The notes: generated from the letters alone by a model not told the origin. 64,000 bases of DNA from a virus (IMGVR_UViG_3300033066_002031:3864-67863); one strand, 5' to 3'; counted from the first letter of the stretch, positions 1,548 through 20,949 are shown. Translations and numbers: made by a program.

Positions 1548-1566
1548 GGCGAACCAGGAATCGGGG

Positions 1567-1595
1567 AGCCCCGTCTATACGACGGGGCTTTTCTT
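1567..1595 (+). terminator. Rho-independent terminator after ro60
   Basis: AGCCCCGTC-TATAC-GACGGGGCT stem followed by TTTCTT. Confidence 0.8.
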
Positions 1596-1613
1596 GTGCA
1601 AACGGTGTTCGCC

Positions 1614-1763
1614 ATGACTCCTCCACTCCCTGATTCCGACGACGACTTTGCCGATTATCCGATCGGCATTTGCCGCCATTGCGACAAAGCGTTCTTGAAG
1701 ACGGAGTTCTTCCTGGAGTTTTGTTCATGGGACTGCGAGGAGCGTTGGCTCAGCGGAAACTGA
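1614..1763 (+). CDS. Small Cys-containing hypothetical protein (49 aa, below the ORF-track cut-off)
   Basis: ATG..TGA, MTPPLPDSDDDFADYPIGICRHCDKAFLKTEFFLEFCSWDCEERWLSGN; CxxC...CxxxC pattern. Confidence 0.45.
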   Translation: MTPPLPDSDDDFADYPIGICRHCDKAFLKTEFFLEFCSWDCEERWLSGN

Positions 1764-1783
1764 ATGGATTCGGTGGATTCGCC

Positions 1784-1993
1784 ATGCACAAGAAGTGCAA
1801 TCATTGTAGCGGCAAGGGCGTGGTCGCCGATACGCACCACTGCTATCGAGTGTTCAGCAAGTATCAAGACACCGGCTGGATTGAGCCCCAGGAGTTCCCG
1901 ACCCTGGATCTCGCGAGGCTGTACAAGGCGAGCAACGGCGACAACTCCCGCATGATGCAGATCGTCGATCCAAAAGGCTGCGTCGTCGATTGA
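1784..1993 (+). CDS. Small hypothetical protein with CxxCxGxG motif
   Basis: MHKKCNHCSGKGVV...; tight packing with neighbours. Confidence 0.5.
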   Translation: MHKKCNHCSGKGVVADTHHCYRVFSKYQDTGWIEPQEFPTLDLARLYKASNGDNSRMMQIVDPKGCVVD

Positions 1994-2002
1994 GAGGTTG
2001 AA

Positions 2003-2218
2003 ATGTCCACCATCGTGATGAAGTGCTCCTGCGACGGCTTCCTCGGCAACAAGGCTGCGGCTCGCTATCAAGACGCCCATAACGGCGCCGGGCTCCGGGT
2101 CCATAACAAGACGACCAAGGAGAATACCTTCCGCTGCACCGTATGCGGCACCGAACGGGGCGCGACGGGCGGAGAAGGCAAGAAGGATTCCAAGAAGGAC
2201 GCCAAGAAGAAGTCCTGA
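2003..2218 (+). CDS. Small putative Zn-ribbon protein
   Basis: CSC...HN...RCTVCG, basic C-terminus, GAGG RBS. Confidence 0.6.
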   Translation: MSTIVMKCSCDGFLGNKAAARYQDAHNGAGLRVHNKTTKENTFRCTVCGTERGATGGEGKKDSKKDAKKKS

Positions 2219-2311
2219 GCCGATCCACCGCATCTGAAGAACATGAGCGACCCGCTGTCCTATTGTCAAATTAGGATCAGCGGGTTTCTCATTTCCCCAA
2301 GGAAGGAACAG

Positions 2312-2674
2312 ATGCCGAACCCAACCAATTTCAACCTCGGCGACGCCATGTCGGTTTCCGGGACGACGGTCGGCGAGAACGTCTACTACGTCTTCCACGT
2401 CGACCGCGACGCCAAGTACACGATCGAGACCAAGGGCACGGCGAACGCCACCCTCGGGATCTGGGGTCCGTTCCCCGACGCATCGGCGGCTTCGCAGGGC
2501 GACCATCCGCCGTACGGCAGGGTCGCGGTCAACGGCGTCGCCAAGTGGGGCAGCCGCACCCTCGCCCCAGGCTACTACTGCCTCCGCGTCACGCTGAGCA
2601 CCAACGGCTCCTACGGCTTCAAGGTGCGTCCTTGGCAGTTCGCCGACTACATCATGACCAAGCTGCATTCATGA
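2312..2674 (+). CDS. Beta-sandwich protein resembling a pre-peptidase C-terminal (PPC) domain
   Basis: YYVF...YTIET.G...TLAPGYYCLRV pattern; AAGGAAGGA RBS. Confidence 0.5.
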   Translation: MPNPTNFNLGDAMSVSGTTVGENVYYVFHVDRDAKYTIETKGTANATLGIWGPFPDASAASQGDHPPYGRVAVNGVAKWGSRTLAPGYYCLRVTLSTNGSYGFKVRPWQFADYIMTKLHS

Positions 2675-2687
2675 CGGGAGGCTCGTC

Positions 2688-2984
2688 ATGGACGGCGACA
2701 TCAAGATCAAGCTGGCTAAATTCATCGAGGTTTCCGAAGCCAAGCAGGAGGAGATTCGGGCGGAATCCGACCGCGTCGCCACGCTCGGCGTGCGAGCCCA
2801 GGAGACGAGCCAGGTGGGGGATTACCTCTCCTACATCTTGTCGGTCTGCAATCTCCATGACAAGAAATTCCAGTTCGTCCTGGATCACGTCGGGTTCATG
2901 ACGCAGTTGTCCAACCTCCTGCTCGTCCACGTTACAGCCCTGCAAAGTCGGATTGACAACCTTGACGGCGACTGCGACGCCTGA
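2688..2984 (+). CDS. Hypothetical protein
   Basis: GGAGG RBS, 98-aa ORF. Confidence 0.6.
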   Translation: MDGDIKIKLAKFIEVSEAKQEEIRAESDRVATLGVRAQETSQVGDYLSYILSVCNLHDKKFQFVLDHVGFMTQLSNLLLVHVTALQSRIDNLDGDCDA

Positions 2985-2998
2985 TATAATCCCAAGGA

Positions 2999-3125
2999 GT
3001 CAGGAGGCGGAATCGAATGTGCGGGCTGCATTGCTCATAAATTTCCCCGCAAGGGGTTGACCACACAGTCGGTAGGATGCTGCCCTCATAAAGCAGAGAC
3101 GGCGGTTCGATTCCGCCTCCTGGCA
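2999..3125 (+). pseudogene. Chimeric tRNA-Met(CAT)-like element: tRNA 3' three-quarters preceded by a CRISPR-repeat-like hairpin and a 19-nt self-antisense segment
   Basis: D-loop AGTCGGTA, anticodon loop CTCATAA, T arm GGCGG-TTCGATT-CCGCC and acceptor 3' strand TCCTGGC are present. The 5' D-stem strand is missing, and 2999-3017 is complementary to the T loop/acceptor strand (3106-3124). Confidence 0.55.
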
Positions 3126-3139
3126 TTAAGGAGACGACG

Positions 3140-3493
3140 ATGACGCTCGACGATCTGAAGGCTGACATCGCCAGCGACATCCCGAGTGACGGGACGCCGC
3201 AGTTTGGGATCATACTGCTGATGGTGATCGGTGCGTTGGTCAGCGAAATCATCCACTGGATCTTCAAGCGGTACACCGACAAGCGGGAAGCCGCCGCCCA
3301 GTGCGTCGTCTACTTCCAGCACTTCGGTCCCATCAAGCGAGTTGCCCTGGTCGCCAGGGCTGTGGCGCTGAAGCATCGCTTCGGCGTCGTCTCGACGTCG
3401 AACGAGAAGATCGTCGATACCACCGTCGGGAAGCTCCGCACCTTGTCGGCGGACGACTTCCTGGCTCTCGCGAAGAACATCGGAGCGGCGTGA
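3140..3493 (+). CDS. Hypothetical protein with one hydrophobic segment
   Basis: AAGGAG RBS, 117 aa. Confidence 0.65.
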   Translation: MTLDDLKADIASDIPSDGTPQFGIILLMVIGALVSEIIHWIFKRYTDKREAAAQCVVYFQHFGPIKRVALVARAVALKHRFGVVSTSNEKIVDTTVGKLRTLSADDFLALAKNIGAA

Positions 3494-3590
3494 TGCAGAG
3501 GCATGGCGATGGCGTCGAGTCCGGTCTTGCAGCTTAACCCCAGGCGATCCATCGATCGTCGGCTGCAAGACGGGCTGGGGCGACCAAGAT

Positions 3591-3821
3591 GTGCAAAGAT
3601 TTCATTCGCAAGACGCTGAGAATGTCCGCAACCGTCGCAAGCGAGATTGGCTCCGTGGGGATCGATATGACAAAGATCCGCATCCCCACAACTGCAACAA
3701 GAAGCATCCATTCGACTGCGGCAATTCGAGGTGCGGCATCTGCTCCGAAGCCAAGCGTTACGGTCACGAACCGACGCGGCAGGAGATCCGCAGCCTGGAC
3801 GGCATGATGGATCAGATGTAA
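3591..3821 (+). CDS. Small basic Cys/His protein
   Basis: HPFDCGNSRCGICS...TRQEIR motif; start uncertain. Confidence 0.5.
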   Translation: MQRFHSQDAENVRNRRKRDWLRGDRYDKDPHPHNCNKKHPFDCGNSRCGICSEAKRYGHEPTRQEIRSLDGMMDQM

Positions 3822-3828
3822 CGGAAAT

Positions 3829-3919
3829 CGCCTGGTGGCTCGAATAGTTAGGCTCCGGTTTTACACACCGGCACACCGGCATAAACCGGTTCAAGTAGGT
3901 GCAAGTCCTACCCAGGCGA
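3829..3919 (+). tRNA. tRNA-Val(TAC)-like gene with long variable arm and atypical T loop
   Basis: Acceptor CGCCTGG/CCAGGCG+A; anticodon arm CCGGT-TTTACAC-ACCGG; V-arm ACCGG-CATAAA-CCGGT; T arm GTAGG-TGCAAGT-CCTAC. Confidence 0.7.
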
Positions 3920-3931
3920 CTTAAAAATACC

Positions 3932-3959
3932 TTGACAAACATTTTTGTCGGGGTATACT
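3932..3959 (+). promoter_or_regulatory. Sigma70-type promoter
   Basis: TTGACA-16 nt-TATACT upstream of tRNA-Thr. Confidence 0.65.
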
Positions 3960-3975
3960 ATTGGGCAGGGATAAT

Positions 3976-4046
3976 TCCCCGAAGGTGTTGCGGCAGCATT
4001 CCGCTTTGGTATGGCGGCGGACCGGGTTCGACTCCCGGTCGGGGAT
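3976..4046 (+). tRNA. tRNA-Thr(GGT), CCA not encoded
   Basis: Acceptor TCCCCGA/TCGGGGA; anticodon arm CCGCT-TTGGTAT-GGCGG; T arm CCGGG-TTCGACT-CCCGG. Confidence 0.75.
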
Positions 4047-4061
4047 CTTAGGACAACGATC

Positions 4062-4556
4062 ATGAGCCGATACAGATTTCTCGTCTCGTCCCGCGTCAAT
4101 GCCGAGGCGACGACCCGCACCGGCATCCAGGACTTCGACGGCAACGACGTCGACTACGCCGTGGTGTCGATCCGAGACCCCAAGGCTCCGGTTCCGAATC
4201 TGCATCGCTCTCCCAGGCTGATCAGCATCCTCTCGCTGGCGTTCCACGACGCCGACGACAAGTGCAACGACAAGCCGTATCAGTTGATGACCAACGCCGA
4301 CGCCAAGAAGGTGTACGACTTCGTCTCGACGATGATGAAGGGCGGCGTCGACACGTTCCTGATCCACTGCGAGCTTGGAATCTCCCGCTCGGCTGGCTGC
4401 GCCGCCGCGCTCAGCAGGATCTTCAACGGCGACGACAGCCGGTATTTCATGACGGGCGGTCCTTACGGCTCGTCGATGTACCGACCCAACATGTTCATCT
4501 ACCGCAAGGTGCTCGAAGCCGGTGGCTACTCCCTAAAGCCGATAGGAGCGGAGTAA
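4062..4556 (+). CDS. PTP/dual-specificity-phosphatase-like protein
   Basis: HCELGISRSAG = CX5R active-site loop; VVSIRDP N-terminal motif. Confidence 0.8.
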   Translation: MSRYRFLVSSRVNAEATTRTGIQDFDGNDVDYAVVSIRDPKAPVPNLHRSPRLISILSLAFHDADDKCNDKPYQLMTNADAKKVYDFVSTMMKGGVDTFLIHCELGISRSAGCAAALSRIFNGDDSRYFMTGGPYGSSMYRPNMFIYRKVLEAGGYSLKPIGAE

Positions 4557-4626
4557 GCGTCGCAAAAGGATTTGCGTTGACATGCGTCCTTTTCGATGAC
4601 TCATCCTCATTTGAGGCTACCTCCCC

Positions 4627-5130
4627 ATGAGCGTTCAGACTCGTCGCGGCATCATCTTCGCCAGCTTCTTCCCGACCGGTTTCCTCACACGCAAGTTCGT
4701 CTCGCCGCCCGAGAAGCCGTCCAACGCCTTCCCCGTCGCCTATGACCGCGACCGCTACAATCGCATCGTCGCGGACTTCGGCTTGATCAACGCTCCCGAG
4801 ACCGCCGTCTACGTCGTCGGCTCCTGGAAGGGGTGCAGCGACTCCAAAGACGCCATCGCGTGCGTCCTGCGGGAAGACGGGCGGTGGATGGGAGCCAGCA
4901 CCCATTTCCCCAGATTTGCGGAGATCCCGGAATACAAGGTCGCGGAGCAATTCCTGCCGAAAGGCTCCGACTGGTTCCTCTCCGAGCCGTCGATCCAGGC
5001 GTTCTCGCCGTATCACACCACATGGTTCCGCAAGGACGGCGGCGACATCCACATGACGCTCCTGACGGGAGCCGGAGCCTACTGCGAACTCGCCGACGCC
5101 GACCACTACTGGATGTACAAGACGTTCTGA
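4627..5130 (+). CDS. Hypothetical protein
   Basis: 167-aa ORF with coding-like composition, followed by a terminator-like hairpin (GCCCGCC/GGCGGGC + T tract). Confidence 0.6.
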   Translation: MSVQTRRGIIFASFFPTGFLTRKFVSPPEKPSNAFPVAYDRDRYNRIVADFGLINAPETAVYVVGSWKGCSDSKDAIACVLREDGRWMGASTHFPRFAEIPEYKVAEQFLPKGSDWFLSEPSIQAFSPYHTTWFRKDGGDIHMTLLTGAGAYCELADADHYWMYKTF

Positions 5131-5189
5131 TCTATTCGTCGGTATAGCCCGCCAAGGACAGGCGGGCTTTTTTCGCGAAAGGAATCGCC

Positions 5190-5609
5190 ATGACCAGGGA
5201 CTTGCTTGAACGGATCGGCTGGAACTTCGCCCAGATCGTCGGGAGGATCACCCTGGACCAGAACCAGGGCGCAATCCTCATCGGAGCTTACACCCTCGCC
5301 GCCATCGCCTTCCTCGGGCTGATCTGCGTCGTCGTCTACACGTCCCGCAAGACGCCGGAAGTGAAGCAGGACGTCGTCAATCTCGACGACACCCAGTACG
5401 TCGAGGAGTTTTTGTCCGAGAAGGCGTCGGAATTCATCACGCTCGCCAACCAGATCGAGCGGGGCGACATCGCCGTCTTCAACCACTGGGGCAAGCGGGT
5501 CAACTGCGAGTCGCTGGTCACGCAGTCCAGGGATCTCGCCGCCTGGCTCACGACGTCGGCTAACAAGTTCAGGTCGCTCCAGGGTCTCGTCGACGACGAG
5601 CAAGCCTGA
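5190..5609 (+). CDS. Hypothetical membrane-anchored protein
   Basis: One hydrophobic helix (ILIGAYTLAAIAFLGLICVVVY); AAGGAA RBS. Confidence 0.65.
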   Translation: MTRDLLERIGWNFAQIVGRITLDQNQGAILIGAYTLAAIAFLGLICVVVYTSRKTPEVKQDVVNLDDTQYVEEFLSEKASEFITLANQIERGDIAVFNHWGKRVNCESLVTQSRDLAAWLTTSANKFRSLQGLVDDEQA

Positions 5610-5610
5610 T

Positions 5611-6744
5611 ATGAGCGGCAAGACGTTCGCCGAGTTCTTCGCGGGCATCGGTCTCGTCCGCCTGGGTCTTGAACCCGGCGGATGGCGGTGCGTCTACGCC
5701 AACGACTTCGACGCCACGAAGCGTCGGTTCTACGAGGCGCAATTCGGGGAGGAAAATCATTTCCACCTCGAAGACGTCAACAACGTCGACGCCGTGGTCG
5801 ACCGCATCGACGAAGCTCCGTTCCTCGCGACGGCTTCGTTCCCATGCACCGACCTCAGCCTCGCGGGACGCTATGCCGGGCTTGACGGCAAGCATTCGTC
5901 GGCGTTCTACGCCTTCGCGTCCGTGCTCGAAAGGCTTGGCGACCGCAAGCCCCAGGTCGTGATGCTGGAAAACGTGCCGGGGCTCCTGTCGTCGCGCAAG
6001 GGCAAGGACTTCGAGTTCATCGCCCGCAAGCTCGCGGATCTCGGCTATTGGGTCGACGCCATGATCGTCGACGCCCGCCATTTCCTCCCGCAAAGCCGCC
6101 CCCGCGTCTTCATCTTCGGCATCCGGAATCCTCCTCCGTCCTGGCGAGGCGAAGACGGGAGATTCTTCCCTCCGAACAAAGCCATCTCGCGCGCCAAGAA
6201 AACGGTCGAACTTTCGACTGGCTGGCTCTACATCTCGGCGAAGTCCAAGAAGCGGAGCGACGTGCCGGAACTCCATGAACTCATCGACGTCTTCGACGAC
6301 GGCGACTGGACCGACGCGAAGATCGAATTGTCGGCGAGCCGCATCCCGGAACGGCACAAGGCGTGTCTTGACAAACTCTACGATCGTGGTACGATATGGG
6401 CTGGCACCGCGTTCCAGAGGACGCGGCACGGCAGGCAGGTCGTCGAGGTCCGGTTCGACGGTCTGGCGGGCTGTCTGAGGACTCCCAAGGGCGGAAACGG
6501 GCGGCAGATCGTCATCATCATCGAGTCGTCGAGAACGGCGATGCGTTGGATGAAGCCGATCGAGTACGCCAGGCTCCAGGGCGCCCCGGATTATCCGCTG
6601 GTTGGCTCGACGACGCAGCAGTTGTTCGCCTTCGCCGACGCCGTCTGCGTCCCCGTAATCAAATGGCTCGACGACAACATCCTGACGCCAGCTTACGAGT
6701 ATGCTTCCAAATATGCGGCTGTTCCTGGAATTCCGCCAGCCTGA
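5611..6744 (+). CDS. dcm: DNA (cytosine-5)-methyltransferase
   Basis: Motif I FAEFFAGIG, motif IV FPCTDLS, motif VI ENV, motif VIII QSRPRVF, motifs IX/X EYARLQG / ADAVCVP. Confidence 0.92.
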   Translation: MSGKTFAEFFAGIGLVRLGLEPGGWRCVYANDFDATKRRFYEAQFGEENHFHLEDVNNVDAVVDRIDEAPFLATASFPCTDLSLAGRYAGLDGKHSSAFYAFASVLERLGDRKPQVVMLENVPGLLSSRKGKDFEFIARKLADLGYWVDAMIVDARHFLPQSRPRVFIFGIRNPPPSWRGEDGRFFPPNKAISRAKKTVELSTGWLYISAKSKKRSDVPELHELIDVFDDGDWTDAKIELSASRIPERHKACLDKLYDRGTIWAGTAFQRTRHGRQVVEVRFDGLAGCLRTPKGGNGRQIVIIIESSRTAMRWMKPIEYARLQGAPDYPLVGSTTQQLFAFADAVCVPVIKWLDDNILTPAYEYASKYAAVPGIPPA

Positions 6745-7949: not shown

Positions 7950-8424
7950 GTCGCAACACTACAAACTCCGTCAGGAGTTGACCACGCATCCTTGCCTCCG
8001 ATGTAAATAGATAGGTTCTCGCGTCGCAACACTACAAACTCCGTCAGGAGTTGACCACTACATGGATCAGGACAGCGTCCGCGAGCCCGTCGGGGAGTCG
8101 CAACACTACAAACTCCGTCAGGAGTTGACCACTACATGGATCAGGACAGCGTCCGCGAGCCCGTCGGGGAGTCGCAACACTACAAACTCCGTCAGGAGTT
8201 GACCACGCTACCATGCAGCCCATCGATGCGAACGTGCCGATAACTGTCGCAACACTACAAACTCCGTCAGGAGTTGACCACTGGTGAACCGTGTTAGCAA
8301 GCTCTCCACAGTGGGCGTCGCAACACTACAAACTCCGTCAGGAGTTGACCACGAGTCGATCGTGACCGAGCCGCCGGAGCCGGTCAGGGTCGCAACACTA
8401 CAAACTCCGTCAGGAGTTGACCAC
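7950..8424 (+). CRISPR. CRISPR array: 7 identical 36-nt repeats GTCGCAACACTACAAACTCCGTCAGGAGTTGACCAC, 6 spacers (37, 38, 38, 39, 35, 36 nt)
   Basis: Repeats start at 7950, 8023, 8097, 8171, 8246, 8317, 8389; internal hairpin AACTCC-GTCA-GGAGTT; spacers 2 and 3 identical; no cas gene nearby. Confidence 0.97.
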
Positions 8425-8572
8425 CAACAAAACTGTTCCGCGCAAGGGGCTGTTCACAGCCGATGGAACTGTAACACTATTATCCCCTGCAAAGGGTTGA
8501 CCACAGTACGCACCACGGGCTTTCCGTGCTTTCGTCTGCAACACAAATAACCCCGCAAGGGGCTCGTCGTAC
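8425..8572 (+). repeat. Diverged repeat-like units trailing the array
   Basis: 8469-8504 CTGTAACACTATTATCCCCTGCAAAGGGTTGACCAC and 8534-8572 GTCTGCAACACAAATAACCCCGCAAGGGGCTCGTCGTAC keep the GYAACAC start and a hairpin, now with a GCAA loop; only the first keeps the GTTGACCAC end. Confidence 0.65.
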
Positions 8573-8596
8573 TAAAGTATCCTATCTTTTTTATGC

Positions 8597-8818
8597 TTGA
8601 CGCGGAGGTTCGTCATGGTGCATCAGATGTGTGTGGCGGCGTGCGTCGACCCAGCTTGTGCAAAGGGGTCGACGTTCCTGCTCCGCGAAGACGAATGGCG
8701 AGCCGGTAAGGATCAGTGTCCGCGATGCGGCAAGCCAGCCCACGTCAAACCCTACAGCCTCGACGAGTGGCGGAATCTTGCCGCCGCCGCGAACCAGGAC
8801 GAAGCCAAGAGCGTCTAG
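8597..8818 (+). CDS. Small Cys-rich (Zn-binding) protein
   Basis: C...C...CPRCGKP; start uncertain. Confidence 0.55.
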   Translation: MTRRFVMVHQMCVAACVDPACAKGSTFLLREDEWRAGKDQCPRCGKPAHVKPYSLDEWRNLAAAANQDEAKSV

Positions 8819-9016
8819 TAAGATACAACACGGGCGATGATCGGCATTGGAGACCGAGCCGCACTCGCATTGCGGAGGCAACCCGTTCGAATCGGGTATC
8901 GTCCACTCTGTTTACATGTTCACTATATTGCTGGAGCCAGCAAGATGATCGACAAAATCTTTTCACGGTGCGGTTTCCTTTAGTGTGGCTCAACCGCCAC
9001 GCGAAAGGAAACTGCA

Positions 9017-9331
9017 ATGGGATGGCGAGAGCGGAACCGACCCGCAGATTACACGGCGATCTACGGGTTCCACAAGAACGGCGTCTGGGTTTCGATGTGG
9101 CGTGGATGGCACAGCGGCGGAAGCTGCCGAAGCTTTCGCCCAATCCGCACCACGGCTGAGAAGCGGGATTGGGATCGCGAGTACGGTCGGGCGAAGCGGT
9201 CGCCTCGGCAACTCCCGATGTATGAGGACGAGCGAATCCGCTGCGTCCAGCGTAGCTGGAAAGCCCAGCGACGCCATCAGTACAAGGTGATCGATATGAA
9301 CACGAAGCGAAAGGTTGGGTCCGCCTGTTGA
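9017..9331 (+). CDS. Basic Arg/Trp-rich small protein, MGWRE family paralog 1
   Basis: Starts MGWRER, has RSWKAQRRHQYK near the C-terminus. Confidence 0.75.
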   Translation: MGWRERNRPADYTAIYGFHKNGVWVSMWRGWHSGGSCRSFRPIRTTAEKRDWDREYGRAKRSPRQLPMYEDERIRCVQRSWKAQRRHQYKVIDMNTKRKVGSAC

Positions 9332-9364
9332 AGTTCGCATTTCGCGAACAGAACAGGAGATCCG

Positions 9365-9655
9365 ATGGGCTGGAGAGAAAAAGGGGCTCCGGAGTTTTAC
9401 CGGAACCACCCGGTCAGGGACTGTCGCAGCGGCTCTTACTGGTGGGGCAAGAAGAGGACGAAGGGCGGGTATCGCCGGGAGCCTTCGCTTTATCGCGAGC
9501 TTCACAACGTCGGCGATCCGCTCTACGCACCGAGAGCCAAGCGGTCGTCCAGGCTGAAGAAGTGGTTTTGCTGGGACTGGGAGCCGACCAAAACGCAGTG
9601 GCGGTCGTGGAAGCACTACCGCTCGACGCAATACAAGGTCGTCAGGACGACGTAA
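9365..9655 (+). CDS. Basic Arg/Trp-rich small protein, MGWRE family paralog 2
   Basis: MGWREK...RSWKHYRSTQYK; AGGAG RBS. Confidence 0.75.
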   Translation: MGWREKGAPEFYRNHPVRDCRSGSYWWGKKRTKGGYRREPSLYRELHNVGDPLYAPRAKRSSRLKKWFCWDWEPTKTQWRSWKHYRSTQYKVVRTT

Positions 9656-9940
9656 ATGGGATGGCGTGAAAAAGGACCGCCGCCGGTTCGGAAAACAACG
9701 ATCGACCTTGGGTACGGAAGCGTCTGGCACAAGGTCTTTTGGCACGGCAACGGCGGTCCCGTCAGGTCGCCTCATCGTCATCCCGCCCTGATGAGCGAGC
9801 GGCGGGCATGGGACGAGCAGTACGCGAGACGATCGCGACGCTGGACGACCAAGACGCTCGCCTGGATCTACAAGTCGGGTCGCAAGCCGCGATCCTGGAA
9901 AAACTACCGCGATCACCAATGGAAGCCGGTGGTCGCGTAA
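9656..9940 (+). CDS. Basic Arg/Trp-rich small protein, MGWRE family paralog 3
   Basis: MGWREK...RSWKNYRDHQWK; starts immediately after the previous stop. Confidence 0.75.
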   Translation: MGWREKGPPPVRKTTIDLGYGSVWHKVFWHGNGGPVRSPHRHPALMSERRAWDEQYARRSRRWTTKTLAWIYKSGRKPRSWKNYRDHQWKPVVA

Positions 9941-9944
9941 TTAC

Positions 9945-10027
9945 GGTGGGGAAGCGAATTGGAAAGCAGCCTGATTGCTAGTCAGGTGCCCGTAAAAGGG
10001 TTGCGAGTTCGAGCCTCGCCCCCACCG
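9945..10027 (+). tRNA. tRNA-Ser(GCT)
   Basis: GGTGGGG/CCCCACC+G73; CCTGA-TTGCTAG-TCAGG; long V-arm CCC-GTAAAA-GGG. Confidence 0.85.
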
Positions 10028-10034
10028 CTTTCTG

Positions 10035-10253
10035 ATGGAGCCTGACTGCATGGAGGCAGCGATGGACGCCAAGGCTTTCGACAGCTTGATTCTGTTCTTG
10101 TCCGTTCCTTACATGGGCGACAAGAGGCGGATCTCCTTCAACAAGCCTGGCGTCTTGTGCGAGAGCGGCGAAAATTATGTCGTGAAATCGGACTGGACAT
10201 GCATCGTTCGTCGTGATATAGTCATCATGGTGGCGATGAAGACAAAGAAGTGA
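10035..10253 (+). CDS. Hypothetical small protein within the tRNA cluster
   Basis: 72-aa ORF filling the gap between tRNAs; GGAGG before the internal ATG. Confidence 0.45.
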   Translation: MEPDCMEAAMDAKAFDSLILFLSVPYMGDKRRISFNKPGVLCESGENYVVKSDWTCIVRRDIVIMVAMKTKK

Positions 10254-10259
10254 AGCGAT

Positions 10260-10344
10260 GGGTCGTGGTGGCGAGGAGCCTGAACCGCCTCCTAAGCGGT
10301 TTTTGCCGAAAGGCAATTGCCGGGTTCGAATCCCGGACGACCTA
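10260..10344 (+). tRNA. tRNA-Arg(CCT) with 5-nt D loop and long variable arm
   Basis: GGGTCGT/ACGACCT+A; D arm GGC-GAGGA-GCC; AACCGC-CTCCTAA-GCGGTT; V-arm TTGCC-GAAA-GGCAA; CCGGG-TTCGAAT-CCCGG. Confidence 0.75.
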
Positions 10345-10349
10345 CTGAC

Positions 10350-10417
10350 GGCTCGCGTCCTGGAGACAGGCGGGTCTTCTACACCTGCCCAGCCCAGTTC
10401 GACACTGGGGCGGGCTA
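10350..10417 (+). tRNA. Non-canonical tRNA-Arg(TCT), 68 nt
   Basis: GGCTCGC/GCGGGCT+A; no nt 8-9; D arm GTC-CTGGA-GAC; 7-bp anticodon stem GGCGGGT-CTTCTAC-ACCTGCC; T arm CCCAG-TTCGACA-CTGGG. Confidence 0.75.
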
Positions 10418-10430
10418 CTGACTGATTGAC

Positions 10431-10500
10431 GGCTCGCGCCCTGGAGGCACCGGCGGCTTCGAACCGCTGGCATCGCAAGGTTCGACCCCTTGGCGAGCTA
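10431..10500 (+). tRNA. Non-canonical tRNA-Arg(TCG), 70 nt
   Basis: GGCTCGC/GCGAGCT+A; D arm GCC-CTGGA-GGC; CCGGCGG-CTTCGAA-CCGCTGG; CAAGG-TTCGACC-CCTTG. Confidence 0.75.
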
Positions 10501-10506
10501 CTCGAC

Positions 10507-10576
10507 AGCCTGCGTCCTGGAGACACCCGAGCTTGCGAAGCTCAGGCATAGTCGGGTTCGACCCCCGAGCAGGCTG
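10507..10576 (+). tRNA. Non-canonical tRNA-Arg(GCG), 70 nt
   Basis: AGCCTGC/GCAGGCT+G; D arm GTC-CTGGA-GAC; CCCGAGC-TTGCGAA-GCTCAGG (one mismatch); TCGGG-TTCGACC-CCCGA. Confidence 0.75.
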
Positions 10577-10580
10577 CTGA

Positions 10581-10651
10581 CCCCCGGTGGTGAAATGGTA
10601 TGACACATGCTCGACACGCATGAGTAGAAGGTTCGATTCCTTCCTGGGGGA
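10581..10651 (+). tRNA. tRNA-Val(GAC), C at position 33
   Basis: CCCCCGG/CTGGGGG+A; CATGC-TCGACAC-GCATG; GAAGG-TTCGATT-CCTTC. Confidence 0.7.
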
Positions 10652-10676
10652 CTTTACCAACCAGTCCTGGAGCAAT

Positions 10677-10925
10677 GCGATGAGCAATCGGAAGAGCGAA
10701 AATCTCATGGCGTGGATCTCGGTTTGCATCGGCTTGGGCTTATGGGTAGCCTTCGCCGGAGGTTGCTACACTCTGTTTTCCGGGCAGGGCGATCTGCATG
10801 AGTTCAAGATCGCGATGACCAACTTTCTGTTCGCCTGGATGCAAACCGCCTTCGTCCTTCGCCACCTTGACAATCTCAACGGGTTTCATGTGACCGAGAG
10901 GGAGAAGTTGGTCTACTCTCGGTAA
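10677..10925 (+). CDS. Small membrane protein
   Basis: Two hydrophobic segments. The longer ORF-track start overlaps tRNA-Val, so an internal ATG is preferred. Confidence 0.5.
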   Translation, partial: AMSNRKSENLMAWISVCIGLGLWVAFAGGCYTLFSGQGDLHEFKIAMTNFLFAWMQTAFVLRHLDNLNGFHVTEREKLVYSR

Positions 10926-10936
10926 GCAGTAGTTAC

Positions 10937-11019
10937 AGCAGGGCTATCCGATTGGCGACGGAATCCGCTTGGAAGGCGGACGTGCGAAAGCCTTGAGGGT
11001 TCGACTCCCTCCCCTGCTG
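10937..11019 (+). tRNA. tRNA-Ser(GGA)
   Basis: AGCAGGG/CCCTGCT+G73; TCCGC-TTGGAAG-GCGGA; long V-arm. Confidence 0.88.
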
Positions 11020-11030
11020 CTTGGTTTTAC

Positions 11031-11120
11031 AGAAGGGCAAGCCGATTGGCGACGGTATCCGCTTCGAAAGCGGACGAGCGGCTCAATGCCGCCTTGAGGG
11101 TTCGACTCCCTCTCCTTCTG
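11031..11120 (+). tRNA. tRNA-Ser(CGA)
   Basis: AGAAGGG/TCCTTCT+G73; TCCGC-TTCGAAA-GCGGA; V-arm GCGGC-TCAAT-GCCGC. Confidence 0.88.
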
Positions 11121-11134
11121 CTGCGGTCATTGAT

Positions 11135-11208
11135 GGGGGTTGTGATGTAATTGGATAGCATCCCTGATTGTGCGTCAGGTCGTGCCGGTTCGAGTCCGGT
11201 CAAGCCTA
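11135..11208 (+). tRNA. tRNA-His(GTG), imperfect acceptor stem
   Basis: CCTGA-TTGTGCG-TCAGG; GCCGG-TTCGAGT-CCGGT; possible G-1; one G-G mismatch in the acceptor stem. Confidence 0.7.
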
Positions 11209-11209
11209 C

Positions 11210-12493
11210 TGGGTGTGTTTTGCATACAGACAATCAGAATTAGCAACATGAGAATTCACAAGAGCTTCAAAACTGAACTTGACCCAAACGATAAACAGCG
11301 GACGCTTTTCCTTAAAAATGCCGGAGTTGCCCGATTTGCCTACAATTGGGGCTTGCATCAAGCACAACAAGCTCAGGCGAATGGTCAAAAAAGACCTCGA
11401 TATTTTGAACTCAACCGTCGTCTGAATTTGCTTAAAAAAACAGAATTCCCATGGATGTACGAAGTGTCTAAGTGTGCTCCTCAGGGAGCTTTGCAGGATC
11501 TCGAAGAGGCGTTCAAAAGATTTTTCAAGAATTGCAATCTGAAAAATAAGGGTGGTTTCAAGAGCAAAAACGGTTTTCCCAGGTTCAAAAACAAAAAAAA
11601 CGGTGTTGGCGGCTTTCGACTGACAGGGTCTATCTATGTTTTTGCCGATGCGATCCAAATTCCCAAAATTGGCAAGGTGCGTCTGAAAGAGCGTGGCTAT
11701 ATTCCGACAGACGCTAAAATTCTCAATATTACCGTCACAGAGCGCGCTGGACGTTGGTTCGTCTCGGTGCTGATTGAAGCAGAACTGCCCGAGCCGTCTG
11801 CTAAGCCTGTTGCTGTTGCTGGCGTTGATCTTGGTATCAAAACGCTCGCGACCTGTAGCGACGGCGTGACGTTCCGGCACTCCAAGGCTTTGCAGGAAAG
11901 CCTCCAAAAACTCAGGCGGCTTAGCCGCCTTGTGTCACGCAAGAAGAAAGGCGGTGCCAACCGGAGGAAAGCCGTAGCCAAACTCGGGAAGCTTCACAAG
12001 CGGATTAGTGACATCCGGAACGACACGCTTCACAAGGTCACGACGCACCTGGCGAAAACCAAGTCGGTCGTCGTGATCGAAGACCTTAACGTCTCCGGCA
12101 TGCTCAAAAACCGTTGTCTCGCCAGAGCCATCAGCGATGTCGGGTTCGGCGAGTTCCGTCGTCAGATGGAGTACAAAGGCTCCTGGTACGGCTGCAAAGT
12201 CATCGTCGCTGATAGGTTTTTCCCGTCGTCGAAGATGTGCTGCAAGTGCGGCGAAGTCAAAATCGACCTATCTTTGTCAGAAAGGATCTTTGTTTGTGAA
12301 TGTGGCAATGTGATTGACCGCGATTTGAATGCCGCAATCAATCTTGAGCGATACTGTACCGCCGGTTCGGCGGGAATCTACGCCTGCGGAGAATCGGGCT
12401 CTGGGCTCGGCTCGCAAGAGTAGAGTGTAACCGGATTCGTTGAAGCAGGAAGCGGACTGCAAGCTACAACTTGCGTAAGTTCCGCAGAACAGG
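11210..12493 (+). mobile_element. Non-autonomous tnpB-only insertion element (ends approximate) with omega-RNA region at the right end
   Basis: No tnpA; visibly AT-richer than the flanks; right-end features GCCTGCGGAG..GAAGCAGGAA..AACTT-GCGT-AAGTT..GAACAGG. Confidence 0.6.
11248..12423 (+). CDS. tnpB: TnpB RNA-guided endonuclease (IS200/IS605 or IS607 type), RuvC intact
   Basis: HTH start KTELDPNDKQ..ARFAYNWGL; RuvC-I GVDLGIK, RuvC-II IEDLNV, Zn ribbon CCKCG..CECG, RuvC-III DRDLNAAINL. Confidence 0.93.
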   Translation: MRIHKSFKTELDPNDKQRTLFLKNAGVARFAYNWGLHQAQQAQANGQKRPRYFELNRRLNLLKKTEFPWMYEVSKCAPQGALQDLEEAFKRFFKNCNLKNKGGFKSKNGFPRFKNKKNGVGGFRLTGSIYVFADAIQIPKIGKVRLKERGYIPTDAKILNITVTERAGRWFVSVLIEAELPEPSAKPVAVAGVDLGIKTLATCSDGVTFRHSKALQESLQKLRRLSRLVSRKKKGGANRRKAVAKLGKLHKRISDIRNDTLHKVTTHLAKTKSVVVIEDLNVSGMLKNRCLARAISDVGFGEFRRQMEYKGSWYGCKVIVADRFFPSSKMCCKCGEVKIDLSLSERIFVCECGNVIDRDLNAAINLERYCTAGSAGIYACGESGSGLGSQE

Positions 12494-12502
12494 CGTGATG
12501 TC

Positions 12503-13090
12503 ATGAGCGGCGTATTGACCCGCCCGGTTTTGGTCCTCAATCAGTCCTGGATGCCCATCCACGTTTCCGAGGTCGCCTCGGTCGTGACGAAGCTCTGGAA
12601 CGACGTCTTCAAGGCGATCGACCCGGAGACCTACGGGCTCCACACCTGGGAAGAGTGGATCGAACTGCCGGTCGGTGAAAGTGAGCCATGCATCCGCACC
12701 GGGAAGCTGAAGATCAAGGTTCCCGAGGTCGTGTGTGCGTTCCGCTACGACAAGATGCCTGCGGCGGCGGTCGTGTACAACGCCCGCAACGTCCACAAGC
12801 GGGACCACTACACCTGCCAGTATTGCGGGGCTCAGCCGGGGCTCGACGGCGTCACGATCGACCACGTCGTGCCGAAGGCTCAGGGCGGCGGCTCGAACTG
12901 GCTCAACTGCGTCTCGTGCTGCTCGCCGTGCAACGCCAAGAAGGCTGACCGCACGCCCGAGCAGGCTGGCATGAAGTTGAGGCGGCAGCCGTTCAAGCCG
13001 GAATTCAAGGCGTTCTGGCAGGAGCAGGGCGCCAGGGTCGCAAGCTGGGAGAGGTTCGTCCGGCACGCGCCGGTTATGAGCTATGCTTGA
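12503..13090 (+). CDS. HNH endonuclease (McrA/HNH_5-like)
   Basis: VLVLNQSW start; RD.YTCQYCG..TIDHVVP...GG...WLNCVSCCSPCNAKK. Confidence 0.9.
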   Translation: MSGVLTRPVLVLNQSWMPIHVSEVASVVTKLWNDVFKAIDPETYGLHTWEEWIELPVGESEPCIRTGKLKIKVPEVVCAFRYDKMPAAAVVYNARNVHKRDHYTCQYCGAQPGLDGVTIDHVVPKAQGGGSNWLNCVSCCSPCNAKKADRTPEQAGMKLRRQPFKPEFKAFWQEQGARVASWERFVRHAPVMSYA

Positions 13091-13119
13091 AGCGTCGCCC
13101 CTTCGGGGGCGACCAATTA

Positions 13120-13194
13120 GAGTGGCGAAGATCGCGGGTAGCGGCGGCGTCTCTGCAAAAGACGTATACATCGGTTCGACTCCGACGCCACTCT
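13120..13194 (+). tRNA. tRNA-Cys(GCA)
   Basis: GAGTGGC/GCCACTC+U73; CGTCT-CTGCAAA-AGACG; TTCGACT T loop. Confidence 0.8.
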
Positions 13195-13213
13195 CTCACA
13201 CAAGGACGGAACC

Positions 13214-16015
13214 ATGCTGAAAGTCAATGGAAGCGCCTCGCTGACGCCCGACTCCGTCGTCCTGACGGCTGGGGAGGACGGCGAGTACGGCTCGGCGTGG
13301 CTCCCGACGCCCGTCAGCACGCTCGACGACTTCTCGATATCGTTCGCGTTCCAAGCCAAGCCCGTCCCTGGGAGACCCCTGGGAGCCGGGCTTGCTTTCG
13401 TTATCCAGAACAGCTTCATGTACGGCTATCTGGAGACGGCGACGAACAACAACCCCGGCAAGGGCAGCCTCGGCATGGGGACGGGGAAGAAGGTCGCGAT
13501 CAAGTTCGACTTCTTCAACGACAACGTCAACAACTGGCAGGGACCGGGCATGGCGAGCACCCGGAACGCCACCGGTCTCTACGTCGACAGCCGCATGCCC
13601 GACGTCACGGACCCCGAAGAGATCAATACCGACCTCGACTTCACGAAGCCGGTCTACGTCACGATCTCCTACAACGCATCCGGCGGGACGCTGACGCAGG
13701 AGATGGGCTCCGTCAAGGGGCAGCCGTCCTGGAAACACGTTTACAGCGATCTGAATCTCAGGACTGAATTCGCCAGGGCGGATTACGACGGCGGCAGGGC
13801 TTACCTCGGCTTCACCGGCAGCACCGGCAGCTTCTATGTCTTGCAGTCGCCTCCGACGGCGAGGATCGAGGTCTTCGACCTGAGCGTCAAGGAGCCGAGC
13901 CGCTACCGCTTCTCCTTCTCGCTCTCCGAGCCCAAGATCACGGCGGCTGATGTGTTCGGGACATCCGGACATGTCCGGACGCTGTGGCAGGCGAACAGGC
14001 TCTTGCCCGGCGACTACGTCGTCGGCTGGGACGGGCTCGACGAATACGGCAAGGTGGTCCCAGCTTCCGCCAACCCTTACGTCCAGGTCGTGGCGAGCGC
14101 GAGGAGCGTCGTGGCGTCGACGGTCGGCAACGACGGCGGCTATTCCGCCGTCGGGATCTACGGCATTGCGGCGTCGCGGCACGACGACCGCCTCTACACG
14201 GCGATCCAGGGCGCCGACTCCTGCCTCGGCGGATGCTCGCGGCAGCTTGATGCGTCGGGCAGGATCGTGCAGCCCGCGTACGTCATGGACGCCCCAGGCT
14301 TCGCCGGCTCGGCGGTGACGCTGGACGCGAAATACTTGTACGTCGCGGTCCAGATCGCCCTCCAGGGCGGCTACGGCGTCACGAAGATCACGCGGGACTA
14401 CTACGACCCATCCGACTCATTCACGAGCGAAAGCCTGCTGAGCCACGGCGGGAAGAAGTACATCCACGTCGACGACGGCGACGCTGGCGAGATGACGCTG
14501 ATCCGCAAGATGGCGGCGACGAATTACGCCGACCCTTCCAGGGGTCTCCTGTACGTCGTGAACCGCAGGCTTTCCCGCATCGAGCGATACGACAAGGTCA
14601 AGGGTCAGCCGATCGGGCTCCCGATCGCGATGGACAATCCGACGGCGGTCGCGTACGACGATGCGACGGCGACGCTCTACGCCTCGGACGGCAAGAGCGT
14701 CTTCGCCTTCGACGACGCCGGCAAGCCGCTCCGCACGCTCCCGGCGGCGTTCGTCGACGTCTCGGATCTGGTCGTCGCGAATGGCTTGTTCTACGTGGCG
14801 GATCGCGGCGTCGGTCGCGTGCTGGTCTACGACGCGGCTGGGAAGCTGAAGCTGTCGATCGGGCAGGACAAGGACGACGGCGTCCGCAAGTTTTGGAGCC
14901 TGACCGGACTCGCCGTGGACGCCTCCGGCTCGCTCTACACGGTGCAGAACCTCCGCAAACCCGACAAGCCGTCGACGCTGTCGAACGGCGTCCAGATCGC
15001 CAAATGGAGCCCTTCCGGCGATAACGTGTGGGTGAAGGGAGGCTACTCGTTCCAGGGCGGCGCCGGGACGGCGGCTGACGGCGTGCTCGTCACGTCCGAC
15101 CTCCGCACGTTCTCGATCGACTCCGAGACGCGGGCGTGGAAGTACCTGGGCACGATCGACTATCCGGCTTGGGATTCGGGAGCCGACGCCGACTACAACG
15201 ACACGTCCCGGTCTCCGATGCGGAACCTGGGCGGCACGCTGGTGAAATCATTGCGGGACGAGGGCGGCGTCGTCTTCATCCGCAGCGGCAAGGTGCTGGC
15301 GTCGGTGTCGCCCGACGTCGTCACGAGGGGCGCCCAGAAGTTCAAGTCGACGACCGGAATCCCCGTGGCGTACATGATGTCCGACCGCGCCGGGAACGTC
15401 TGGTGCGTCTCGCGGCATCCGACGACGTGGATGTACGGTCTGTACAAGCTGCCGCTGCTCTCGTTCGACCGGAGCGGCGCCCCGGTGCATAACTGGAACG
15501 CCGTGGCGAAGGTCATGGACTTCGACGCGATCCCGAATTCGATCGCGATCAACGACGGCGGCGTCTACTCCCTGGTTTCGGACTGGACGCTGAGCCCGCC
15601 GAGCAGTATAAGCGTATTCGGGAACTACAGCATCGGCGGCAGCAATGCACTCGTGAAATATTCCCTGAATGGAACGCGGGAATGGACGATCCGCCTGCCC
15701 AACTACGCCGTCTGCCTCGACTCGATCCCAGGCGGGGGCGGCGTCGTCGTCGGCATGGCGGTCGGGAGCGAGGTCTATCAGGTGACGAGCGAAGGTCAGG
15801 TGACGGCGTGCTCCTTCCCGTCGACGCCTTCGGACTGGCTCGACGTCAAGAGCGGCTCGATCGGCGTCAGCCGCGACGAGAAGACCGGTCGCATCGACGT
15901 CTTCACGGAAAACATCGGCTGGTCCCAGACGGCTTGGCATTCGATCTACCAAAGGGCTCCCGTCGTCGTCCTCCGTGGGAAGGCGGTCGGCGGAGCCGTT
16001 TCACCGTTGAAGTAA
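13214..16015 (+). CDS. Multidomain protein: L-type lectin + FlgD-like Ig domain + NHL/beta-propeller repeats
   Basis: Lectin motifs (GSAW..FSISFAF..GLAFVIQN..VAIKFD..YLGFTGSTG); FlgD motif VRTL..GDYVVGWDGLDEYG; NHL-like YVADRG..GLAVD. Confidence 0.7.
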   Translation: MLKVNGSASLTPDSVVLTAGEDGEYGSAWLPTPVSTLDDFSISFAFQAKPVPGRPLGAGLAFVIQNSFMYGYLETATNNNPGKGSLGMGTGKKVAIKFDFFNDNVNNWQGPGMASTRNATGLYVDSRMPDVTDPEEINTDLDFTKPVYVTISYNASGGTLTQEMGSVKGQPSWKHVYSDLNLRTEFARADYDGGRAYLGFTGSTGSFYVLQSPPTARIEVFDLSVKEPSRYRFSFSLSEPKITAADVFGTSGHVRTLWQANRLLPGDYVVGWDGLDEYGKVVPASANPYVQVVASARSVVASTVGNDGGYSAVGIYGIAASRHDDRLYTAIQGADSCLGGCSRQLDASGRIVQPAYVMDAPGFAGSAVTLDAKYLYVAVQIALQGGYGVTKITRDYYDPSDSFTSESLLSHGGKKYIHVDDGDAGEMTLIRKMAATNYADPSRGLLYVVNRRLSRIERYDKVKGQPIGLPIAMDNPTAVAYDDATATLYASDGKSVFAFDDAGKPLRTLPAAFVDVSDLVVANGLFYVADRGVGRVLVYDAAGKLKLSIGQDKDDGVRKFWSLTGLAVDASGSLYTVQNLRKPDKPSTLSNGVQIAKWSPSGDNVWVKGGYSFQGGAGTAADGVLVTSDLRTFSIDSETRAWKYLGTIDYPAWDSGADADYNDTSRSPMRNLGGTLVKSLRDEGGVVFIRSGKVLASVSPDVVTRGAQKFKSTTGIPVAYMMSDRAGNVWCVSRHPTTWMYGLYKLPLLSFDRSGAPVHNWNAVAKVMDFDAIPNSIAINDGGVYSLVSDWTLSPPSSISVFGNYSIGGSNALVKYSLNGTREWTIRLPNYAVCLDSIPGGGGVVVGMAVGSEVYQVTSEGQVTACSFPSTPSDWLDVKSGSIGVSRDEKTGRIDVFTENIGWSQTAWHSIYQRAPVVVLRGKAVGGAVSPLK

Positions 16016-19183: not shown

Positions 19184-19546
19184 GGGCGCGTTCTAGAATC
19201 GAATCGCGTCGAGACTGAGATACAGTGCGAGCCGTGCTTGGTCGAGCGGGCACGTTAAAAATCGACCGAAACCTTAGCTGCGAACGACACCGTTCCCTTC
19301 CGTCTCGCCGCCTGATCGGCGAGAGGATCGGACGCAAGGCTCCATCCTGGAGGGCTTTGCGTCCGAGCGTCAAACCAGGATAGGGCAGCGTCAGTTCTGA
19401 CCGGTCGCCGCCCGAAACAAAAACGCCAGATCGCCTGAAATGATTGTGCCGAGTGCAATCTTCAAGGCTAAACCTTCATTCGGAAACGCTCGTAGTGCTG
19501 GTCTTTGCCTGACCCGATGACAGCGGTGCAAGTCCGCTCGCGTCCA
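19184..19546 (+). ncRNA. ssrA: tmRNA, tag peptide ANDTVPFRLAA
   Basis: 5' GGGCGCG pairs with 3' CGCGTCC+A, including G3-U70; tag ORF 19280-19315 ends LAA-stop; T arm AGCGG-TGCAAGT-CCGCT. Confidence 0.92.
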
Positions 19547-19595
19547 ATTGATGCAAGCTGTTTGTTCGCAAGGTCTTATAGCTAGAAAGGTTGCC

Positions 19596-20586: not shown

Positions 20587-20592
20587 AACGAC

Positions 20593-20749
20593 ACCCGCCT
20601 AGCTCAGTCGGCAGAGCACCGACGAAACGATGGTCTCATGTTGGCGGAATTCGGGCGACGGTGTACAACGCCGTCCGCGTGACTCCAATGTGTGGCATGA
20701 TCACATCGTGACGTGTCGGAGGTCCGTGGTTCGATCCCATGGGCGGGTA
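20593..20749 (+). ncRNA. tRNA-like RNA 1 with a 91-nt insert replacing the anticodon loop
   Basis: ACCCGCC/GGCGGGT+A; TA-GCTC-AGTCGGCA-GAGC; CCGAC[20624-20714]GTCGG; AGGTC; CGTGG-TTCGATC-CCATG. Confidence 0.8.
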
Positions 20750-20760
20750 CTCTTACTGAC

Positions 20761-20924
20761 ACCCGGTTAGCTCAACTGGTTAGAGCGCCGTCCCCTGGAT
20801 GGTGGACCCGGTCGTGGAGCCGCAGGAGGTTGCGCAGCCTCCGGTAGCGACGAAACGGCATGGTCTGCACGATCGAATCCGGGAACATGGCGGAGGCTGC
20901 GAGGTTCGAATCCCGCACCGGGTA
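20761..20924 (+). ncRNA. tRNA-like RNA 2 with a 96-nt insert replacing the anticodon loop
   Basis: ACCCGGT/ACCGGGT+A; TA-GCTC-AACTGGTTA-GAGC; CCGTC[20793-20888]GGCGG; AGGCT; T loop TTCGAAT. Confidence 0.8.
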
Positions 20925-20949
20925 CTTCTACTTATGGAGCAGCAACGTA

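Follow-up and report, generated by a model that had tools for sequence, protein, structure and literature searches.

Compact cloverleaf of phage tRNA-Arg genes, apparently a genuine tRNA design, preserved by compensatory mutations in two strains

How much of its core can a tRNA lose and still be expected to decode arginine? The question is raised by three adjacent genes in a linear IMG/VR virus record of 67,863 bp, about 88% complete, of which the 64,000-nt part IMGVR_UViG_3300033066_002031:3864-67863 was analysed here and is called the window. The encoded proteins include an HK97-type portal, a prohead protease and a large terminase, and the source is probably an uncultured tailed phage whose relatives are prophages or contigs within Planctomycetota genomes. 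Cultured phages are all distant, with a best portal identity of about 21-27%, and blastn of the tRNA cluster against them matched the Ser tRNAs alone. A planctomycete host is likely, since 37 of the 44 genome loci with portal relatives sit in MAGs named Planctomycetota; the taxa represented are Gemmatales, Gemmataceae, Tepidisphaerales, Phycisphaerales and Brocadiia.

The three genes lie on the + strand and carry the Arg anticodons UCU (10350..10417, 68 nt), UCG (10431..10500, 70 nt) and GCG (10507..10576, 70 nt), the lengths counting the discriminator, which is A in the first two and G in the third. All can be drawn in one and the same way. A 7-bp acceptor stem passes directly, with a linker of 0 nt at positions 8-9, into a 3-bp D stem of the form GYC/GRC (GCC/GGC in the UCG copy) closed by the loop CUGGA; a single A then separates the D stem from an anticodon stem of 7 bp, whose 7-nt loop contains U33 and A37; and the 3' part consists of a V loop of 3, 5 and 5 nt, respectively, a 5-bp T stem and the T loop UUCGACN. 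The GCG copy has a single C.A mismatch at pair 3 of the anticodon stem. The initial annotation had described three tRNA-like Arg genes sharing one unusual architecture, and this was confirmed both by reading the sequence and by a scan of both strands of the 64 kb with a purpose-written descriptor (connector 0-2 nt, D loop 4-6 nt, V loop 3-6 nt). The scan gave exactly three matches, at 10350-10416, 10431-10499 and 10507-10575, each with the discriminator base next to it, and found the compact architecture nowhere else in the window on either strand. The minimum-free-energy fold given by RNAfold is the compact cloverleaf for the UCU and UCG copies, and a covariance model built from the two 70-nt copies recovers the third copy at 59 bits. 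The compact tRNAs are G-C-rich (63-70% GC), in a phage of about 60% GC.

Standard tools handle these genes poorly. With default settings ARAGORN reports the UCU copy alone, giving it a different D arm; all three appear, with the correct ends, in its metazoan-mitochondrial mode. An existing Rfam family covering the fold had been set beforehand as the finding that would count against the proposal; none of the families in release 15 matches the trio at E<=10, in a search of 18.5 kb or in one of 246 nt, and RF01852 has no match on the three genes. The ordinary neighbouring tRNAs score 32-51 bits in Rfam, the gathering threshold of RF00005 being 29 bits. The expectation that scanners may miss such genes was borne out, with one of the three detected by default ARAGORN and none by Rfam, and to this extent tRNA annotation of phage metagenomes is blind to them. 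A limited full-text literature search found no published description of the architecture, and it looks as if this tRNA design has not been described before for bacteria or phages.

Of particular value for judging the fold is a second strain, represented by an 11.8-kb ENA contig (L310) that was reached via the protein family of small basic proteins encoded just upstream of the cluster. It is about 80-85% identical to the window upstream of the cluster and 95% identical downstream, and it carries four compact genes rather than three: CCU at 6436-6503 (68 nt), UCU at 6517-6584 (68 nt, 62% identical to the UCU copy of the window), UCG at 6598-6668 (97% identical to the UCG copy of the window, with a 6-nt V loop) and GCG at 6675-6744 (the same sequence as in the window). 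Over 65 core positions the UCU copy of the window shares 82% identity with the compact CCU gene of L310, which indicates that it is a relative of the latter with a shifted anticodon. The four-gene form is also present in two more ENA assemblies (L313 and L314), wastewater metagenomes included, and the GCG gene is identical in all three contigs. The trio in its window form recurs, identical, in Logan and JGI assemblies (L239 and L241) in which the phage is 99.9-100% identical.

The window strain and L310 together provide seven sequences, six of them distinct, for an analysis of covariation. Among the six, 97.7% of the pair cells are standard pairs, and compensatory changes occur at 13 of the 22 pairs (28 cells) and in all four helices. 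None of 500 shuffles reached the observed pairing or covariation, and when the partners were slid by 1-3 columns pairing dropped to 28-42%. The three window copies taken alone differ on both sides at 12 of 22 pairs with 98.5% of cells paired, a figure that becomes 28-46% on sliding by 1-3 columns. An identical structure was predicted independently by RNAalifold. The two features that most distinguish the drawing from an ordinary tRNA are themselves included: the outermost two pairs of the 7-bp anticodon stem covary (C-G in four sequences, G-C in two), in the 3-bp D stem the middle pair does likewise (U-A in five, C-G in one), and the D stem of the UCG gene, GUC/GAC in L310 vs. GCC/GGC in the window, has undergone a double compensatory change. 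The stem covariation that had been noted between the copies thus holds in all four helices, and L310 adds further compensatory changes to it. Four deep lineages, at 60-70% identity, are represented among the members, and retention of the fold is therefore not the inertia of recent copies. Judged from these alignments, compensatory mutations appear to have maintained the compact shape in two strains, so that it has the look of a real tRNA design.

The same figures largely refute the notion that the genes are decaying duplicates, that is tRNA pseudogenes, or else ordinary tRNAs misfolded on paper, to which we would give very little credence. This notion can appeal to the minimum-free-energy folds, which depart from the cloverleaf in three of the six sequences, and to ARAGORN, in whose drawing of the UCU copy the connector has 2 nt, the D stem 4 bp (CCUG/CAGG), the loop 4 nt and the anticodon stem 5 bp. 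When that alternative D arm was evaluated over the whole set it was rejected: 67% of its cells are paired, covariation is absent, and it is broken in four of the six sequences. Decay is equally hard to reconcile with the proportion of compensated pairs among members so divergent, with loops that are invariant and with genes that are identical across independent assemblies.

Invariant or nearly so are the D loop CUGGA, the single A after the D stem, U33, A37, C35, G53 and the T loop, which is UUCGACN in five members and CUCGGCA in the sixth, the UCU tRNA of L310; this one is odd in having C54 and G58 and also G32. CUGGA supplies G18-G19-A20 after C-U, like the core of canonical tRNA-Arg D loops, and the discriminator is A throughout, except for G in the GCG member. 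The identity set read by bacterial ArgRS of the E. coli type consists of A20, C35, U36 or G36, and A73 or G73, and every one of these elements is present in the sequences; the retention of G18-G19-A20, C35 and the T loop, as first described for the trio, is seen across the members. In every member exactly one pair of the 7-bp stem, the third or the fourth, just below two outer G-C pairs, is a G.U or a mismatch, and three members have a mismatch within this stem. The weak pair may be a retained hinge in the role of the 26-44 junction of normal tRNAs.

These features also bear on whether the RNAs decode at all. They might instead be uncharged tRNA mimics, serving as decoys or sponges of some tRNA-binding enzyme, as partners in the phage's Ro60 / Y-RNA-like system, as primers or as regulatory RNAs. 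What would suit a mimic is the abundance of odd tRNA-like RNAs in the phage, its TROVE protein, the loss of the core read by many tRNA enzymes, and the failure of general tRNA models to recognise the genes; but a mimic has no need of a perfect 7-nt anticodon loop with U33 and A37, nor of A20, C35 and A/G73, nor of four Arg-box anticodons standing in the same order in two strains, and the genes are in line with canonical tRNAs at tRNA-like spacing. We consider the mimic unlikely, and favour functional Arg decoder tRNAs with a compensated compact core, at a probability of roughly 0.7. The sequence, the fold and its covariation, the order and anticodons common to the strains and the codon bias are observed; that the genes are transcribed, processed and charged, as well as their three-dimensional geometry and the selective reason for it, we infer.

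The setting of the genes is that of a tRNA cluster. They are preceded by a tRNA-Arg(CCU) detected by ARAGORN at 10260..10344 (+, 85-86 nt), the first Arg gene, so that four Arg anticodons, CCU, UCU, UCG and GCG, do stand in a row as the initial annotation had it. In this CCU tRNA a 3-nt connector leads into a 3-bp D stem whose 5-nt loop is GAGGA; the anticodon stem is 7 bp long, and the variable arm is long and capped by GAAA, which amounts to a class II shape on an Arg anticodon. The tRNA folds with a z of -3.1, and it scores 28-30 bits with the compact-tRNA model. It is unrelated to the 68-nt compact CCU gene that occupies the same slot in L310, and the anticodon order CCU-UCU-UCG-GCG is common to both strains despite this turnover of genes. 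About 35 nt before the first Arg tRNA lies a sigma-70-like promoter candidate (10194..10222, +; TGGACA, a 17-nt spacer with TG, TATAGT), by consensus the sole promoter-like site in 8400-13300, and it is kept at the same place in L310 as TGGACA-17-TATAAT. The flanking genes are a canonical tRNA-Ser(GCU) upstream (9945..10028, +; ARAGORN; 38 bits with the Rfam tRNA model) and a canonical tRNA-Val(GAC) (10581..10652, +; ARAGORN; 50.8 bits in Rfam) that begins 4 nt past the last compact tRNA. The remaining tRNAs of the cluster, for Ser, Val, His, Ala and Thr, are all canonical, and the odd shape is therefore Arg-specific, most simply the legacy of one founder.

The tRNA cluster is part of an accessory module, since a related contig at about 74% nucleotide identity (L308, from NCBI GCA_054403235.1) retains the small basic proteins and the methylase but is without the segment matching window 9940-16011, in which lie the tRNA cluster, TnpB, HNH and a lectin-like gene. 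Elsewhere L308 carries genes for tRNA-Met, Val(UAC), Thr(GGU) and Ala(UGC).

The proposed course of events would begin with a single founder tRNA-Arg whose core was rebuilt and which became the ancestor of the compact set. This founder would have lost nucleotides 8-9, one pair of the D stem and the part of the D loop holding 14, 15 and 21, and its anticodon helix would have gained two G-C pairs at the expense of the variable loop. By the rules of mitochondrial compensation, a stack of D stem (3), A and anticodon stem (7) should be roughly equivalent to the canonical 4 + 1 + 5 plus two tertiary layers. What processing and translation factors touch would have survived, namely an acceptor-T minihelix of 7/5, the elbow formed by G18-G19 and T54-Psi55-C56, an anticodon loop of 7 nt and the ArgRS determinants. 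The founder would then have been duplicated, with the anticodon shifting within the Arg box. Under standard wobble the anticodons CCU, UCU, UCG and GCG suffice for all six Arg codons, and with the CCU tRNA the compact genes could thus form a private Arg set, behind one promoter-like site, by which all six are readable. In the window the spacers to the next tRNA are 4-13 nt long, mostly starting with CU, and CCA is encoded in no compact gene. These features fit the established maturation pathway of RNase P and RNase Z cutting followed by CCA addition, and because of them we suppose that the precursors would be cut by the host's RNase P and RNase Z and finished by the CCA-adding enzyme.

As to what such a set is for, the likeliest use would be to sustain Arg decoding during infection for a genome rich in AGG. 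AGG makes up 21% of the Arg codons in the 73 called genes of the phage and 25% in the late genes, its share being 8-12% in four related phages without tRNA genes and 5-9% in samples from three Gemmatales genomes. This enrichment lends modest backing to real decoding, at least by the CCU and UCU members, and those are the only members for which it accounts. The UCG and GCG anticodons serve the codons most used by the candidate hosts, and their presence suggests independence from the host tRNA pool. A possible additional benefit would be to free the phage from reliance on host tRNA-Arg when this is in short supply, switched off or under attack.

This leads to a refinement of the preferred reading, not exclusive of it, in which the compact shape is itself an adaptation: the tRNAs would be charged decoders whose rebuilt core and long, G-C-rich anticodon helix turn them into poor substrates for a tRNA-Arg nuclease of the host or a competitor, or for some other tRNA-depleting defence, and the phage would in this way substitute its own for the whole Arg set during infection. 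The initial annotation had raised such nuclease-resistant replacement as a possibility. We hold it tentatively, as a possibility with the odds against it. In its favour, the Arg set is complete, including UCG and GCG for host-preferred codons, so that codon supplementation alone does not suffice as an account, and the GCG anticodon needs no A34-to-I editing, the reaction carried out by TadA, which it bypasses. The tmRNA and the Ro60/TROVE protein can be read as a wider investment by the phage in quality control of RNA and translation. Phage tRNAs have been found able to rescue infection from tRNA-cleaving defences, with colicin D, which targets tRNA-Arg, among those named (PMC10264068), and independence in the Arg set would fit the idea that phage tRNAs replace tRNAs that are cut by defences or depleted (PMC10264068). 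Against it, the anticodon loops are ordinary for tRNA-Arg, and descent from one odd founder explains an Arg-specific shape equally well. Somewhat more doubtful still is the fuller version, that a core geometry not seen before is accepted by the usual bacterial machinery (RNase P, the CCA-adding enzyme, ArgRS, EF-Tu and the ribosome) and was fixed by escape from a tRNA-Arg-directed defence or from host tRNA turnover, giving an attack-proof Arg set.

Comparison with known systems puts the compact decoders in perspective. Relative to canonical tRNA-Arg (RF00005) they share the 7/5 acceptor-T branch, the T loop, the CUGGA core, the anticodon loop, the discriminator and the setting in a phage cluster, and the class I features of a 7-bp acceptor, a 5-bp T stem, a 7-nt T loop, U33 and a purine at 37 are found in all six distinct sequences. 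Unlike canonical tRNAs they are without nucleotides 8-9 and without A14, R15 and A21, and hence without the 8-14 and 15-48 tertiary pairs; their D loop is the 5-nt CUGGA and their anticodon stem has 7 bp, as against 7-11 nt and 5 bp in class I.

The closest parallels are those to which the initial annotation had pointed, tRNA-Pyl and mitochondrial tRNA-Ser(UCN). The tRNA-Pyl of Methanomethylophilus alvus has a 0-nt connector between acceptor and D stem, a 4-nt D loop and an interrupted 6-bp anticodon stem. In mammalian mt-tRNA-Ser(UCN) the connector measures 1 nt, the anticodon stem 6 bp and the V loop 3 nt, the D loop is small, and both G18-G19 and T-Psi-C are present (PMC7609411). The phage RNAs resemble tRNA-Pyl in a compact core with a connector of 0-1 nt, a D loop of 4-5 nt, a lengthened anticodon stem and a variable loop of 3 nt, and tRNA-Pyl, despite such a core, is still L-shaped and functional on the ribosome (PMC7609411). 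The differences are considerable: tRNA-Pyl has a 6-bp stem, lacks G18-G19 and T-Psi-C, has a CUA anticodon and is served by its own PylRS, whereas the phage RNAs have a 7-bp stem, a 3-bp D stem, a canonical elbow and four sense Arg anticodons, and no dedicated synthetase, or any aaRS-like Pfam match, was found among the 39 proteins of the 68-kb record that were scanned, which are part of its gene set. With mt-tRNA-Ser(UCN) and the other compensated mitochondrial tRNAs they share the exchange of a shorter connector and small D loop for a longer anticodon stem and short V loop, and mt-tRNA-Ser(UCN), like them, still has G18-G19 and T-Psi-C. Mitochondrial tRNAs, shaped by mutation pressure, are rich in A/U and have co-evolved mitochondrial enzymes; the phage tRNAs are G-C-rich and presumed to use bacterial ones. 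The phage genes have the long anticodon stem with short connector and D arm that mark compensation of the mitochondrial type, and the relaxed ARAGORN mode finds them, but since they lie in a phage of about 60% GC the likeness is one of design, not descent.

The claim that the phage tRNAs are a more extreme version of these relatives stands as regards the 7-bp anticodon stem and the 3-bp D stem but not as regards the connector, a length of 0 nt being known from M. alvus tRNA-Pyl (PMC7609411). The cloverleaf had been called novel, but the offsetting of a long anticodon stem by short connectors is already a rule for mitochondrial tRNAs (Steinberg and Cedergren 1994, 1997, cited in PMC4394434). 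The design principle is known, and what is new is the combination and the setting. Bacteria and phages do have other non-canonical cloverleaves that annotation often misses, namely allo-tRNAs, selC-like tRNAs and tRNA-Sec (Mukai et al. 2017, PMC5389517). Allo-tRNA and tRNA-Sec have an acceptor/T branch of 8/4, 9/4 or 9/3, a long V arm and a long D stem; the phage Arg tRNAs, unlike them, keep 7/5 with a V loop of 3-6 nt and alter the D/anticodon branch. If the latter are working elongators, the D/anticodon branch can be rebuilt far beyond what has been assumed and still serve standard bacterial enzymes. They would then make it possible to study, on a natural test bed, the reading of the core by ArgRS, RNase P, modification enzymes and the ribosome, and would be a new scaffold for the engineering of orthogonal tRNAs. 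A full private Arg set is also relevant to the question, now debated, of codon supply vs. evasion of defences as the role of phage tRNAs.

How widely is the fold distributed? A pattern scan across IMG/VR (CCTGGAGRCA, 28-32 nt, GTTCGAC) gave 34 loci, none with the fold, and in JGI and ENA metagenome contigs, searched with the same pattern idea, all 119 examined among the matches listed were chance. A single-protein search of IMG/VR with the portal gave nothing. A portal alignment led to 80 IMG/VR loci, and 50 whole records with portal relatives of 33-51% identity were searched with the covariance model; none of the 50 matches it, and the four most complete portal relatives have no ARAGORN-detectable tRNA genes. 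The fold was not found in 156 Planctomycetota genomes (5 + 151) searched by model or in 401 searched by pattern; these searches gave canonical tRNAs, chance matches and one weak 68-nt tRNA-like match. The latter, in a Planctomycetota MAG (L307, G074:C76:860-927), scores 36 bits with the compact-tRNA model and has a 7-bp acceptor, a long interrupted anticodon helix, the loop CUUUACA, which would read UAA, and the T loop UCCGACU; ARAGORN has no match at this locus. The upstream 67-aa ORF and the downstream HNH, used as bait, returned the same two strain types and nothing more distant, apart from an HNH homolog that led to an unrelated phage tRNA cluster with essentially canonical tRNAs. In that phage (L330, Logan SRR20069394) at least 19 tRNA genes lie upstream of the HNH homolog, at 840-3640, and a tRNA-Ile(GAU) among them can be folded with an anticodon stem of 7 bp and a D loop of 5 nt, perhaps by chance. 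The fold is thus found in one phage lineage, in two strain types, and the evidence for its conservation therefore rests on paralogs and close strains.

Several other elements near the cluster may be mentioned. Upstream of it, at window 9017-9940 (+), are three tandem paralogs of a basic, Trp-rich protein of 94-104 aa, with a conserved MGWRE start and an RSWK..R..Q.K end, for which homologs were found only in this phage lineage (6 clusters). In a JGI contig (3300045347, L243:749-1266) phage sequence of 98.7% identity breaks off in or just past tRNA-Ser(GCU), at window 10023, and a strong terminator hairpin and low-GC DNA encoding an EamA/DMT transporter follow; either a prophage was attached here at tRNA-Ser, or the assembly is chimeric across this tRNA. 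Directly 3' of tRNA-His is a TnpB gene (OrfB_IS605 and Cas12f1-like TNB; window 11170-12423, +), with a sub-threshold RAGATH-18 match at its 3' end (12383-12451, +); the element is not in L310 and so looks like a recent IS insertion into the tRNA module. Between the HNH and lectin-like genes, at window 13119-13194 (+), lies a tRNA-Sec-like cloverleaf with a 9-bp acceptor and a 4-bp T stem, of which there is a homolog near L310:8850-8908. Its anticodon loop CUGCAAA gives GCA, a Cys anticodon, and it reaches 32.9 bits with the Rfam tRNA-Sec model, for which the gathering score is 47; the class that it resembles is that of selC-like tRNA-Cys / allo-tRNA.

The phage has many RNA-related genes beyond the tRNAs, which include, besides TnpB and a C5 methylase, a tmRNA and a TROVE protein. 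The tmRNA is encoded at window 19184-19549, and a TROVE (Ro60-like) protein of 715 aa at record 3263-5410, that is up to window 1547; weak YrlA-like and tRNA-like RNA matches lie around window 20590-20930. Also near the left end, record 386-1582 encodes a class-V aminotransferase / cysteine-desulfurase-like protein (Pfam E = 8e-88). The large terminase (window 55312-57903, -; 863 aa) has weak LAGLIDADG / homing-endonuclease matches at residues of about 307-370, preceding its ATPase domain, which suggests the presence of an intein or an inserted homing endonuclease.
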